Position numbers and translations under genes: made by a program. A model generated the notes under the pieces. That model saw only the letters and a list, made by a program, of their open reading frames with translations. It did not search any database and was not told the origin of the DNA. 56,509 nucleotides of DNA, from contig DATERP010000008.1 of the NCBI GenBank assembly GCA_035271385.1, forward strand, positions 1 to 56,509, in the 5' to 3' direction. Positions 2,912 to 22,012 of the stretch are shown here, in pieces. Each line of letters starts with the position of its first letter. The stretch's first letter is position 1. Origin of the DNA: Thiopseudomonas sp. Lineage in GTDB: Bacteria; Pseudomonadota; Gammaproteobacteria; Pseudomonadales; Pseudomonadaceae.

Positions 2912-3847
2912 TTAAGGCAGCTGCGCTTGTAAAAACCTAAAGATTTGCTCACGCCATACCGCTTGCTCATTAGCCAAGTGATGGCGTGCTTGCGGCAGCA
3001 ATAATATTTTTGGCTGATTAAACTTATCAGTTAACACGCTTAAATTATGCTGCCAGTCCACAGTCATATCCGCCTCACCCTGCACAATAATCGGGCTATG
3101 GACACTGGGCTGCGCCTGTTCAATATAAGGTATCCACTGCGCCAGTGCGCCCACCCAAGCCGTCGGTAAAATCTGTGCCTGTAAGGGATCATTGCGTACA
3201 AAATCCACAAAGGCACCATCATGTGAGTTATTGGAATAGCGCCGCGGCACACTGCGACGAAAAGGTTTAATCATTTGATACAGTAGTTTGGATTGTTGCC
3301 ATGCACGGGGTCGCACCAGCGGCGCCAGCAAAATAGTTTCACCTATGGGTTTACTCGGCTGTTGGTGTACCAAATAGTCCAGAGCAATCGCCGCACCGGT
3401 GCTTTGCCCCAAGATATGCCATGGTTTAGGTAACTGCAGTTGCTGCGCCTTTGCCAGCATGGCTTGCAACACCTGCTGATACTCTTGAAAACTATGAATA
3501 CTGGCACGTGCTCCTGTGGATAAGCCATGCCCAGGTAAATCACAAGACAACAATGCAAAGCCTTGTGCTAAGGCCCACAGGTACACATGACCGTATAAGC
3601 CCATATGATCGTAGTAGCCGTGTAAGACCAGCAGCGTAGCGCGCGCCTCAATCGGCCGACAGACTTGCATAGCCACTTGATAAGCCCCCACCCTGACCTG
3701 CCCTAAACGACAATCAAGCTCGGGGTTGTACTGTGCAAAATCAATCTGATAAAACTGCCGCCAACCTTTTGCTAGCGCTGGATCAATGCTGTGCCGAGTC
3801 AACGCTGGTAAAACACGCTGTAACGCTTGCGGATCAAACTCAATCAT
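2912..3847 (-). CDS. Alpha/beta hydrolase (lysophospholipase/monoglyceride lipase-like)
   Basis: LHGYYDH, DLPGHG, GQSTG nucleophile elbow, D and H of the catalytic triad near the C-terminus. Confidence 0.88.
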   Translation of the reverse strand: MIEFDPQALQRVLPALTRHSIDPALAKGWRQFYQIDFAQYNPELDCRLGQVRVGAYQVAMQVCRPIEARATLLVLHGYYDHMGLYGHVYLWALAQGFALLSCDLPGHGLSTGARASIHSFQEYQQVLQAMLAKAQQLQLPKPWHILGQSTGAAIALDYLVHQQPSKPIGETILLAPLVRPRAWQQSKLLYQMIKPFRRSVPRRYSNNSHDGAFVDFVRNDPLQAQILPTAWVGALAQWIPYIEQAQPSVHSPIIVQGEADMTVDWQHNLSVLTDKFNQPKILLLPQARHHLANEQAVWREQIFRFLQAQLP

Positions 3848-13805: not shown

Positions 13806-14888
13806 ATGGGATTGCGTACCCCTTTGTATGATATGCACCTGGCTCTGGGTGCAAAAATGGTTGATTTTAATGGCTGGGATATGCCATTACATTACGGCTC
13901 GCAAGTGGAAGAACACCACCATGTGCGCAAAGAGTGCGGTGTGTTTGATATTTCCCATATGAGCATTTTTGATATTCAAGGCGCTCACGCAAAAGAATTT
14001 TTGCAGCTAGTGCTCAGTAATGATGTCGCACTGCTTGATGCCGTAGGCCATGCACAACACAGCCTGTTGCTCAACGAGCAAGGCGGTATTATTGATGATG
14101 TAATGGTGTTTCGTACTGAAACGGGCTATCGCATCGTCAGTAATGCTGTCACTCGTGAGCGCGTACAAGGCTGGCTTGAGCAGCATGCACCAGCCTTTGA
14201 CTGCGTGATCACTTGGCGTCATGACCTGTGCCTGTTTTCAATTCAAGGCCCTCTAGCGCGCGAGCGTCTTGCCAGCATTGTCAGCTCATCACGCGCCAAA
14301 CTGATTGAACAACTACAGCACCATGAGGCTGCTGTTGACCGTGACTGGCTGATTTCCTGCAGTGGTTACACCGGTGAAGACGGTATCGAAATTATACTTC
14401 CTGCTAGCCAAGCCATCGACTTTCTAAATGAGTTGGTCGGTGCAGGTATCAGCCCAATAGGTATTGGTGCGCGTGACACCTTACGCTTAGAAGCTGGCTT
14501 TAATTTATATGGCTTAGATACCAACGAAGCAGTGTCACCGCTGGCCGCTAACATGGAAGGCTTAATCTGCTGGCAACCTGAGACGCGCAACTTTATCGGC
14601 CGCGCTGCTGTACAAGCGCAGTACACTCAAGGTGTAACCGAGAAACTTGTAGGTTTAGTGCTCGAGGAGCGCGGTGTTTTACGTGCCGGTCAACCTGTAC
14701 GCATTGATAACCAAACCAATGGCGTGATCACCAGCGGTAGTTTTTCACCCACCCTTGGTAAAGCCATTGCCTTAGCGCGAGTGCCGATGAATACCGCTGA
14801 CCGGGCTGAAGTTGAAATTCGACGCAAATGGTTTCCAGTGCGAGTGGTTAAGCCGCGTTTTGTCAGTCGTGGAAAGATTCTGATTTGA
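13806..14888 (+). CDS. gcvT: Glycine cleavage system aminomethyltransferase T
   Basis: [45 protein letters not shown]. Confidence 0.92.
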
Positions 14889-15032
14889 TCTTGTATCAAC
14901 AAGATCAATAATTTATAAGTGACTCTATGTAAGCTGTTTTAAGTTGATTCATCAATGTGTTGGCGACTGTCCGTACTATAAACACATAGACCTATAAAAA
15001 TTTGCATTGCATCTGCTAAGGATATTAATAAT

Positions 15033-15410
15033 ATGAGTTCAATTCCTGCCGATTTACGTTATGCCAGCACTCACGAATGGGCGCGTCTCGAAGCCGATGG
15101 CACAGTGACTGTAGGCATTACTGATCACGCACAAGAAGCCTTAGGCGATATCGTATTTTTAGAGTTACCAGCACTCGAAAGCACTCTAACTGCTGCCCAG
15201 CCTGTGGGTGTAGTTGAGTCAGTGAAAGCTGCATCGGATATCCACGCACCGATCAACGGTACAGTCATAGCCGTCAATGAAGGCTTAACTGAAGCGCCTG
15301 AAGGTGTGAATACTCATCCGTATGAGAGCTGGTTTTACCGCTTACAGCCCAGCAATCCGGAGGAACTGCAGCAACTGTTAGATGCTGCAGGTTATGAGGC
15401 GGTTTGCTAA
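15033..15410 (+). CDS. gcvH: Glycine cleavage system H protein
   Basis: [15 protein letters not shown], lipoyl motif VESVKAASD. Confidence 0.95.
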
Positions 15411-19800: not shown

Positions 19801-20898
19801 TTATACCTGTAACTGTTGCACAGCATCCAGTAGCATTTGCTCAGTTTTTGACCAGCCTAAGCAACCATCAGTAATCGACACGCCATACTGCAAGTTATCG
19901 CACAGCGCTTGCTGACCATCCATCAAGTTACTTTCCAGCATCACCGCACGCAAACTGCGCTCACCAGCGGCACGCTGCGCTAAGACGGACTGTAAAACCT
20001 GCGGCTGCACCTGCGGATCTTTGCCGCTATTGGCATGACTGCAGTCCACCATTAATGACGCCTCTAAACCCACTTTACGCATCGCAGCGCAGGCTTGAGC
20101 AATACTGTCTGCATCATAATTAGGACCTGCATGACCTCCGCGTAAGACTAAATGCGTATCTGGATTACCTTGGGTTTCCACCAAGGCGGCGCGGCCTTGC
20201 TGGTCTAAGCCAAAATGCTGATGGGCATGAGCGGCAGAGCGCATCGCATCTAAAGCAATACCCACACTGCCATCGGTACCGTTTTTAAAACCCACCGGCA
20301 GCTCTAAACCACTGACCATTTCTCGGTGAATTTGCGACTCACTGGTGCGCGCACCAATCGCCGCCCAGCTCAATAGGTCATCAAAGTAGCTGGCAGCTAA
20401 GGGCTGTAATAACTCTGTGGCAACCGGTAAATCCAACTCCAACATGCGCAACATCAACTGACGTGACAGTTGTAAACCCTGCGCCATATCAGCGCTACCA
20501 TCTAAATGCGGGTCATACAGCAAACCTTTCCAGCCCACAGTGGTGCGTGGCTTTTCAATATAAATACGCATAGCGAGCAACATATGCTCGCTAACCTGAC
20601 TGGATAACTTAGCCAAACGCTCAGCATACTCAAGCGCTTCGTCGATGCTATGAATTGAGCAGGGGCCAACCACTACGAGCAATCGCGAATCTTCGCCACT
20701 TAGAATCGCTCGCACTTGCTCGCGCTGCTGCTGCACGCGACGCGCCAGCTCTGCACTTAAGGGTAATTGTTGGCGCAGCTCGTGAGGGCTGGCAAGAGCC
20801 TGCGTTTTACGGCCTGTGGGTAACACAATATTAGCATTGGCTGCGGTAAGGGCTGCAGTGTTGTGATCGAATGCTAGAGCAGTATGTAGAGCGTTCAT
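19801..20898 (-). CDS. 3-deoxy-7-phosphoheptulonate (DAHP) synthase, class I (AroF/G/H family)
   Basis: GPCSIH, EKPRTTVGWKG, IGARTSESQIHRE, GFKNGTDG, VDCSHANS, YGVSITDGC; isoenzyme not assignable. Confidence 0.96.
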   Translation of the reverse strand: MNALHTALAFDHNTAALTAANANIVLPTGRKTQALASPHELRQQLPLSAELARRVQQQREQVRAILSGEDSRLLVVVGPCSIHSIDEALEYAERLAKLSSQVSEHMLLAMRIYIEKPRTTVGWKGLLYDPHLDGSADMAQGLQLSRQLMLRMLELDLPVATELLQPLAASYFDDLLSWAAIGARTSESQIHREMVSGLELPVGFKNGTDGSVGIALDAMRSAAHAHQHFGLDQQGRAALVETQGNPDTHLVLRGGHAGPNYDADSIAQACAAMRKVGLEASLMVDCSHANSGKDPQVQPQVLQSVLAQRAAGERSLRAVMLESNLMDGQQALCDNLQYGVSITDGCLGWSKTEQMLLDAVQQLQV

Positions 20899-20935
20899 AA
20901 TTGTCCTTATATCAGCGGTTGAACCGCTGTAGGTT

Positions 20936-21040
20936 TTATCGAGTCAATCGTCTTAAGCTATTGGGTAGGGCTAATTTATGGTTACTAAATCGCCAGCTCA
21001 AATCATCGAAACGCTGTGGATAACGTGCATAGATTGCCAT
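20936..21040 (-). CDS. Putative leader peptide 2 (34 aa) MAIYARYPQRFDDLSWRFSNHKLALPNSLRRLTR
   Basis: Translated by hand; GAGGA RBS before ATG; Y,Y,F,W,F within the first 18 codons; stops 37 nt before the DAHP synthase ATG. Confidence 0.6.
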   Translation of the reverse strand: MAIYARYPQRFDDLSWRFSNHKLALPNSLRRLTR

Positions 21041-21077
21041 GTTGCTGTCCTCTTAAATATTCAAAAACTTAAATTCT

Positions 21078-21117
21078 AAAAACAAAAAACCCCGGGTGGG
21101 AAGCCAACCGGGGTTTT
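21078..21117 (-). terminator. Attenuator-type intrinsic terminator within the DAHP synthase leader
   Basis: Minus strand AAAACCCCGG-TTGGCTTCCCAC-CCGGGGTTTTTTGTTTTT. Confidence 0.88.
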
Positions 21118-21167
21118 CATAAAGCAGTGGTAGGCGTCCTAGTTAAAGAGGCCCACCTGTATGGATA

Positions 21168-21299
21168 TCAGGCGCGCCTTGGGCTAAACCAATATCCATA
21201 AAAATAATACGCAACAGAGTCATTTAATCCACGCGCACGGTTCATCGCAGCAGCACTAGGCTGAGTAATCAATAGTGTTTTCAATGCGTGATTTAACAT
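21168..21299 (-). CDS. Putative attenuator leader peptide 1 (43 aa) MLNHALKTLLITQPSAAAMNRARGLNDSVAYYFYGYWFSPRRA
   Basis: Translated by hand; GGAG RBS; 7 of 8 consecutive codons aromatic (21186-21209); followed by hairpins and a terminator. Confidence 0.8.
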   Translation of the reverse strand: MLNHALKTLLITQPSAAAMNRARGLNDSVAYYFYGYWFSPRRA

Positions 21300-21322
21300 A
21301 AATAACTCCAAACAATGCAATT

Positions 21323-21351
21323 AACATACTGCATGCGTATCAGCAGCGCAA
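21323..21351 (-). promoter_or_regulatory. Candidate sigma70 promoter for the leader/DAHP synthase transcript
   Basis: TTGCGC-17 bp-TATGTT on the minus strand, 23 nt before the leader 1 ATG. Confidence 0.5.
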
Positions 21352-21357
21352 GCGCGC

Positions 21358-21912
21358 TTAACGGTCAGTGCGGTAAATTTTCTCGCCATTCAGTTTGCTG
21401 CTCCAAGGTAAACCTGAGTTTTGCCAGCCGTTTTTCACCCGCATACCGGCTTGTGGGCCTTCACTTTCTGCACCACCCTGAAAACCATTCACCACAAAGC
21501 GTGCATTGACTAAACCGGCTTCACGTAAAACGATAGCACTGGGCTCACCACGCTCACTACCCGAGCGGCACATGGTAATCACTTCAGTATTTTCATCCCA
21601 ACCACGCTTGGCCAGTTCAGCTTTAATTTGCGCAACAAACTCTGGGTTGCGCTCCATGGGAAAAATATTACGCTCAGCATTCCACTTGCTGCGATCCGCC
21701 ATTAAAAATGGAATATTGACATCCACCGCATCAGTAAAACCCACAAACATAATTTCAACCGGATCACGCACATCGACTAACAGCACGCGCTCTTCAGTTT
21801 GCTGAGTTTTCGCATAAGCATCTTCAGCACTGATAGCCAGTTCAACGGCCTGCACAGAAAACACCGCTAAAGATAGTACCGCAGCACTGATTAAACTTTG
21901 TAGACGAGTCAT
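21358..21912 (-). CDS. Exported single-domain rhodanese/sulfurtransferase
   Basis: Signal peptide ending VQA; LVDVRD, CRSGSERG active-site loop, GFQG, GWQNSGLPW. Confidence 0.82.
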   Translation of the reverse strand: MTRLQSLISAAVLSLAVFSVQAVELAISAEDAYAKTQQTEERVLLVDVRDPVEIMFVGFTDAVDVNIPFLMADRSKWNAERNIFPMERNPEFVAQIKAELAKRGWDENTEVITMCRSGSERGEPSAIVLREAGLVNARFVVNGFQGGAESEGPQAGMRVKNGWQNSGLPWSSKLNGEKIYRTDR

Positions 21913-22012
21913 GTTGGCTCTCCAATCAATAAGTATCAACACAATACACTATTATAGATTATCTGTAACAGCCCATCTTATCACCCGTCCACTTAAGCTG
22001 AATCAGGATGTA

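Follow-up and report, generated by a model that had tools for sequence, protein, structure and literature searches.

A class I DAHP synthase gene in the window (the whole 56,509-nt stretch of a Thiopseudomonas sp. contig analyzed here) is preceded by two consecutive short reading frames that both carry tyrosine, phenylalanine, and tryptophan codons. We conclude that this tandem aromatic leader element is real and widespread, and that it is probably undescribed in this form. With high confidence, leader 1 is a ribosome-coupled transcription attenuator of the his type, and the RNA catalogued as P15 is its terminated product. Leader 2 is most likely an RtpLP-like ribosome-coupled brake on synthase translation, backed by Rho, with folding tests that were mixed on its sign. 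A serial two-stage model, in which the leader 1 attenuator is followed by the leader 2 translational brake, is the one toward which we lean on balance.

How is the region in front of the synthase organized? A gap of 459 nt (20899 to 21357) separates a rhodanese-like gene, which ends at 21358, from the synthase gene (20898 to 19801, minus strand; TIGR00034, 443 bits, and PF00793 in profile searches). An earlier sequence-only reading had placed a promoter, a first leader, stems, a terminator, a second leader, a hairpin, a Shine-Dalgarno (SD) sequence, and the synthase on the minus strand across this whole gap; all of these features were present in the sequence, and the extent was confirmed. The sigma-70-type promoter (21323 to 21351, minus strand) has its −35 box at 21351 to 21346, a 17-nt spacer, and its −10 box at 21328 to 21323, with a predicted start near 21316. 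Judged by eye, the boxes recur at the same spacing in most clade representatives; the site is absent from the list returned by a simple promoter scan, and the call therefore rests on conservation and on the start mapped in Pseudomonas aeruginosa. Leader 1 (21168 to 21309, minus strand) consists of an SD (21309 to 21304) and a 43-codon open reading frame (ORF; 21299 to 21168) with a Tyr/Phe/Trp cluster at its end. Its start is best placed at the SD-led ATG at 21299, which is kept throughout the genus, and the cluster places 7 aromatic residues within 8 codons, a density reached by only 2 of 14,890 short ORFs of the window's own genome. Four alternative-pairing segments (21129 to 21199, minus strand), A (21199 to 21189), B (21178 to 21169), C (21159 to 21150), and D (21139 to 21129), form the 5′ part of the match to the Rfam family P15 (21210 to 21089, minus strand). 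The intrinsic terminator (21078 to 21114, minus strand) is made of segments E (21114 to 21103) and F (21100 to 21089) and a U tract that runs to about 21078.

Beyond the terminator, leader 2 (20936 to 21052, minus strand) has its own SD and a 34-codon ORF (21040 to 20936) with a Trp-Arg-Phe motif from 20995. A hairpin (20913 to 20929, minus strand) stands between its stop codon and the synthase SD (20908 to 20903), with which the last feature (19801 to 20908, minus strand) begins; the first 90 nt of the synthase gene are unusually C-rich. Neither leader has a Pfam or NCBIfam family in profile searches, and a search of a plasmid collection was without match. A named Denitrificimonas caeni record has closely similar leaders and an enzyme of 88% identity.

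Several observations concern the surroundings. The rhodanese-like gene (21358 to 21942) likely carries a signal sequence and is the same-strand upstream neighbor throughout the genus; its stop codon lies 6 nt upstream of the −35 box, with no evident terminator in between. A divergent Mg-chelatase gene occupies this place in P. aeruginosa. The hairpin at 20913 to 20929 also scores on the plus strand as a terminator-like site, and antisense reads occur close to where the P. aeruginosa-like synthase gene ends. Elsewhere in the window, ORF translations gave adjacent glycine-cleavage T-like and H-like genes (13806 to 15410), an ordinary arrangement.

The sequence-only reading had proposed an Rfam search and a comparative alignment. 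The former identified leader 1 and its terminator as P15 (RF00627), which that reading had missed: the window scored 84.5 bits (E = 3.9e-17; gathering cutoff, 70) over model positions 1 to 119, the full model, and leader 2 lies outside it. P15 was detected by Northern blotting as a stable RNA and is filed in Rfam as a Pseudomonas sRNA, in an entry without stated function (Livny 2006, PMC1524904); a later report guessed from synteny that it was a riboswitch (Livny 2008, PMC2527527). Nowhere in the literature that we searched was P15 or its region described as an attenuator, or leader 2 described at all, although older comparative papers on attenuators may predict leader 1; a word search of PMC2965389 for P15 or the region as an attenuator likewise found nothing. 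P. aeruginosa leader 1 is annotated solely as a hypothetical protein.

Can leader 1 switch its terminator? The attenuator fold of the window had a z score of −5.43, and none of 200 shuffles was as stable. The predicted six-segment fold took the A:B and C:D plus terminator form when no ribosome was present, the B:C plus D:E form when a ribosome sat on the aromatic cluster, and the C:D plus terminator form when it had reached the stop codon. In an equilibrium model, the cost of an open terminator in the window was 6.3 to 6.5 kcal/mol with a stalled ribosome, compared to 13.3 kcal/mol at the stop codon and 11.6 kcal/mol without a ribosome; stalling at the final Phe codon had little effect (12.0 kcal/mol). 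Under the same model, a stall lowered the cost of the open terminator relative to a ribosome at the stop codon in 178 of 182 loci. Since related genomes are not independent, tests were repeated on 37 clade representatives, all of which (37/37) behaved in this way. A cruder helix-occupancy test, in which D:E was compared between stall and stop, was flat (34 loci up and 37 down; n = 181, with the window's row excluded). The comparative alignment revealed that both conformations are kept across 47 sequences, with 94% and 88% of cells paired versus 30 to 59% in slid controls, and that the terminator stem is 95% paired; covariation was modest, with 3 and 4 pairs of two-sided change and none in D:E. 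Tyr, Phe, and Trp codons occurred together in leader 1 of all 179 complete loci, most of which had been selected via the leader 1 region.

RNA ends reported for P. aeruginosa bear on the same point. In strain PA14, P15 is given as a 227-nt RNA on the strand of PA14_25980, from −449 to −223 relative to the gene (PMC3460626). PA14_25980 corresponds to PA2943 and is the P15-linked gene. Our locus L190, where leader 1 matches named P. aeruginosa proteins at every residue, has a geometry that fits the PA14 coordinates: position −449 falls behind the conserved promoter and 19 nt upstream of leader 1, and the terminator stem ends at position −223. RNA depth over leader 1, in three stranded RNA-seq samples from one study, was 3.7, 6.7, and 12 times that of the gene body; it fell at the terminator and climbed again over leader 2, to 2.2, 3.5, and 2.2 times the gene body in the same samples. 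In sample X21 this second step was within noise (leader 2 depth of 25 versus 23 in the top gene-body bin). Poly-A loose ends in run X24 lay at genomic A runs; these were treated as mispriming and not used as evidence.

Loss of MiaA impairs the decoding of Tyr and Trp codons (PMC13434334), and supplement ES1 of that report lists PA14_25980 with a log2 fold change of +6.44 in the miaA mutant (87-fold; FDR, 3.6e-9). The value lies between +6.0 and +6.8 across four miaA comparisons, and it is +6.57 when changes to trpL codons normalize the aromatic pools. In the same data, trpE and trpG rose by +3.97 and +3.82 (16-fold for trpE), the two other DAHP synthases changed by 0.17 to 0.67, and neighboring genes changed by less than 0.7. 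The 87-fold value is a row of the supplement; the main text mentions neither DAHP, aroF, P15, nor the PA14_25980 locus tag. Because PA14_25980 is induced when aromatic pools are high or normalized, its response points to decoding rather than metabolite sensing. Taken together, an RNA whose ends coincide with the mapped start and the terminator and the 87-fold rise in the miaA mutant make leader 1 very likely an attenuator. The miaA effect does not separate leader 1 from leader 2. A 30-gene signature of human-infection versus in vitro expression also includes PA2943 (log2 fold change, 3.2; PMC5984494); this could reflect slowed ribosomes. In a Pseudomonas putida producer strain, aroF-2 (PP3080) was up together with the trp genes (PMC2874742); we do not assume that PP3080 is linked to P15.

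We then asked how general leader 2 is. From 240 loci we removed 41 without a synthase hit in the locus, 7 leaderless paralogous loci, and 9 duplicates, leaving 183 picked by leader 1 or by the enzyme. Leader 2 with its own SD was present in 182 of these: a script found the second SD-led ORF in 181, one further locus (L076) has an ORF with a weak SD, and L117, from an Alcanivorax-labelled metagenome-assembled genome (MAG), is without one. The loci were mostly chosen via leader 1, so the conservation of leader 1 is partly by construction and that of leader 2 is not. Aromatic residues make up 1,050 of 3,002 leader 2 positions (35%) up to the Trp-Arg-Phe motif and 42 of 3,861 (1.1%) beyond it. The motif is nearly fixed at the codon level. 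Among 178 loci, arginine is encoded by CGA at the motif in 170, and a second CGA precedes the stop by four codons in 166, compared to 3.6% CGA among synthase Arg codons; leader 2 of the window has a Tyr-bearing 5′ half and this rare CGA four codons upstream of its stop. The distance from motif to stop is 19 to 21 codons in 27 of the 37 representatives, and a longer form carries a folded insert. The insert, with two overlapping alternative hairpins, is shared by the L031 group (P. fluorescens group) and by loci L249 to L273 of family f49, and it is possibly ancestral or transferred.

The end of leader 2 is kept close to the synthase start. In 34 of 37 representatives the hairpin lies between the two, beginning at most 4 nt from the leader 2 stop in 32 of 37, and in one clade the stop is 15 nt upstream of the start. 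Of the 24 loci of family f49, 9 have a stop codon that overlaps the start codon and another 12 have it 2 to 19 nt upstream. The hairpin is followed by the SD and by no U tract, and therefore does not qualify as a second intrinsic terminator. All 37 representatives have a C-rich synthase start; in the window's own genome, which contains Rho, the first 90 nt rank among the top 7 of 417 gene starts for excess of C over G. Two other candidates were set aside. Pairing of the Trp-Arg-Phe motif with the synthase ribosome-binding site (RBS), considered as a universal feature, exceeded that of swapped partners in just 19 of 37 clades; it surpassed the average gene-body block in 26 of 40 cases and was the best of all blocks in 7. 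It was strong in L212, L217, L038, L047, and L211 but poor in the genus of the window, with the window itself the worst. A frameshift from leader 2 into the synthase was rejected because the stop-to-start distance occurs in all three frames (14, 10, and 13).

On the serial two-stage model, transcription would start about 17 to 19 nt upstream of leader 1. With the ribosome absent or at the leader 1 stop, C:D and the E:F terminator would form, and the short P15 RNA would be released. A ribosome slowed on the Tyr/Phe/Trp cluster would cover segment A, so that B:C and D:E could form and polymerase could read through. On the read-through RNA, we infer that completion of leader 2 and departure of its ribosome would keep the synthase start inaccessible, through termination of that ribosome at this start or through pairing of the leader with it, and that Rho would then stop transcription in the untranslated C-rich beginning of the gene, or this RNA would be degraded. 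Were the ribosome instead held at the aromatic codons of leader 2, mostly 19 to 21 codons before its stop, the synthase start would be left free. Either leader would respond to a shortage of any one of the three charged tRNAs; as the leaders stand in series, the response would be multiplied.

The sequence-only reading had spoken of a double RNA lock that integrates tyrosine, phenylalanine, and tryptophan supply. Its first lock is well supported by the predicted attenuator fold, the RNA ends, and the miaA data; of the second it can be said that leader 2 is conserved at the synthase start and that its sign is mixed in folding tests. All three codon types occur in both leaders, which would make each an OR gate; together the leaders would have a multiplicative effect on the response, not an integration of distinct inputs. 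In its broadest form our proposal is an all-RNA two-stage sensor, an attenuator and then a translation/Rho checkpoint, both reading the three aromatic tRNAs, with the Trp-Arg-Phe/CGA element as the second switch, that replaces repressor control of shikimate entry across the Pseudomonadaceae and related families and has a range of about 90-fold in P. aeruginosa. We advance this full version tentatively, at somewhat less than even chances.

Does a stalled ribosome on leader 2 raise or lower synthase expression? The leader 2 region of the window folded no better than shuffles (z = −1.29), and no conserved fold emerged over the 37 representatives (alifold energy, 0). Simulations for 178 loci found the RBS easier to open with the ribosome at the leader 2 stop in 81 and with a Trp stall in 58. 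Opening it in the window cost 3.4 kcal/mol at the stop versus 6.9 kcal/mol at the Trp stall, which favors the sign opposite to a brake. The result for the window suits a different arrangement, in which leader 1 is the sole starvation sensor and leader 2 is a positive translational coupler, such that stalling damps expression. The terminating ribosome would melt the hairpin or reinitiate at the synthase. The placement of the hairpin within 4 nt of the leader 2 stop agrees with it, as does the ATGA overlap in 9 of the 24 f49 loci, a classic signature of translational coupling. However, coupling leaves unexplained the confinement of aromatic codons to the 5′ half (35% versus 1.1%) and the near-fixed stop distance, and the 87-fold rise in the miaA mutant exceeds that of the single trp attenuators. 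Positive coupling is on the whole unlikely, yet the mixed folding tests and the opposite sign in the window keep it a serious rival to the brake.

A 5′ end within the region raises another possibility. At −203, PA14 has an end annotated as a transcription-unit start (PMC3460626). By mapping onto L190, this end lies downstream of the terminator and 51 nt upstream of leader 2. For the sequence-only reading, a synthase promoter downstream of both the terminator and leader 2 would have counted against the double lock; the end at −203 precedes leader 2, and what it may provide is a bypass of the first lock. The two leaders could then serve parallel inputs, with a promoter after the terminator yielding a basal transcript that contains leader 2 only and leader 1 adding an inducible one. 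The annotated start, the dip in RNA depth at the terminator with its renewed rise over leader 2, and a promoter-like site in the window (21102 to 21073) are in line with such an arrangement. Promoter-like sites in the window are at chance level, however (2 found, 1.5 expected), the start-calling study used read height with TAP enrichment validated solely in aggregate, and no −10 box is visible at the −203 end, which lies within a GU/UUUU run. This run resembles an RNase E site, and the end may be a processing site. We consider parallel inputs doubtful, somewhat more so than positive coupling.

It is very unlikely that P15 acts in trans as an sRNA, or that the leaders encode functional peptides, with the synthase controlled by a regulatory protein, for example a TyrR/PhhR homologue: the stability of P15 in Northern blots and RNA-seq, its filing in Rfam as a gene, and the TyrR-type regulators of two P. 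aeruginosa-like genomes (G175 and G182) speak for this, but in the parsed loci P15 is on the synthase strand and always upstream of the synthase, the 5′ part of leader 1 varies alike at all codon positions while the leader 2 motif is conserved at the codon level, the miaA induction persists with high or normalized aromatic pools, and neither TrpR nor a TyrR-type helix-turn-helix (HTH) domain over the cutoff was found in the window's own genome (89% complete). From its position and the miaA data, we favor a cis role for P15. No class II synthase was found in that genome either; it has one further class I synthase, which lacks such a leader, and a frame ending in Arg-Trp-Arg-Trp-Arg before trpE (contig C11, about 3250 to 3320, plus strand; locus L241), of the Pseudomonas trpL type.

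P15 was found in 111 of 151 Pseudomonadaceae genomes, representing 14 of 21 genera, and in all 34 genomes of one genus (g25). At the level of the order it occurred in 8 of 151 genomes, four of them outside the family. In family f49 the leader 2 pattern was present in 33 of 101 genomes (reversed control, 0); the 25 loci fetched from this family contained 24 DAHP synthases; aromatic leader 1 was evident for 23 of these and, by a simple pattern, a terminator for 18. One-leader forms, in which leader 1 and the terminator are followed directly by the synthase, occur in Alcanivorax-type genomes (L117, L174, and L246).

These findings assign a function that can be tested to an "sRNA" long catalogued in Pseudomonas, and they propose how one entry enzyme of aromatic biosynthesis is regulated across a large family that includes P. 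aeruginosa. They also offer a possible explanation for the 87-fold change of PA14_25980 in the published miaA data (PMC13434334). Tandem ribosome sensors are rare, and the natural one-leader, overlap, and hairpin variants provide ready comparisons, the one-leader forms being controls for leader 2. The region is also relevant to strain builders interested in aromatic production in pseudomonads.

How does the element compare with known systems? The Escherichia coli leaders hisL, trpL, and pheL combine a control-codon ORF, mutually exclusive hairpins, and an intrinsic terminator, and hisL has six segments. Leader 1 of the window resembles them in its short control-codon ORF, exclusive hairpins, and terminator; unlike them, the window has control codons of three kinds, its first leader is 43 codons long, and another leader lies past the terminator. 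Bacillus subtilis yfmH has a leader for multiple amino acids, and ermBL/ermBL2 reportedly set a precedent for tandem leaders. The statement of the sequence-only reading that it knew of no characterized example was too strong, given the mixed leader of Corynebacterium glutamicum and the tandem designs of the B. subtilis at operon and Salmonella mgtCBR. In C. glutamicum, the aroR leader of aroF, which likewise precedes a DAHP synthase, carries Phe-Tyr-Phe and is reported to respond to Phe but not Tyr limitation (PMC4046766, PMC11802643). It is described as one leader, is without Trp codons, and belongs to another phylum. The B. subtilis at operon has a T-box followed by the RtpLP leader, whose full translation prevents translation of the next gene (PMC2311275, PMC10327191), and thus shares with the window the order of a transcriptional sensor and a translational leader. 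Leader 2 has the RtpLP-type feature of control codons upstream and a stop at the next RBS, mostly via the hairpin in Pseudomonadaceae. The first sensor of the at operon, however, is a T-box, and the system reads Trp only and controls a regulator, whereas the window has two ORFs of three codon types before a pathway entry enzyme. In Salmonella mgtCBR, the tandem short ORFs mgtM and mgtP share one leader (PMC3641672); they sense different signals, ATP and proline, additively, whereas the leaders of the window carry the same aromatic codon types. Closest in lineage are the Pseudomonas trpL1 and trpL2 leaders, which are single, read Trp only, and are MiaA sensitive (PMC13434334); they come from the same family and share with the element described here both the sensitivity to MiaA and the Trp-Arg codon motif.
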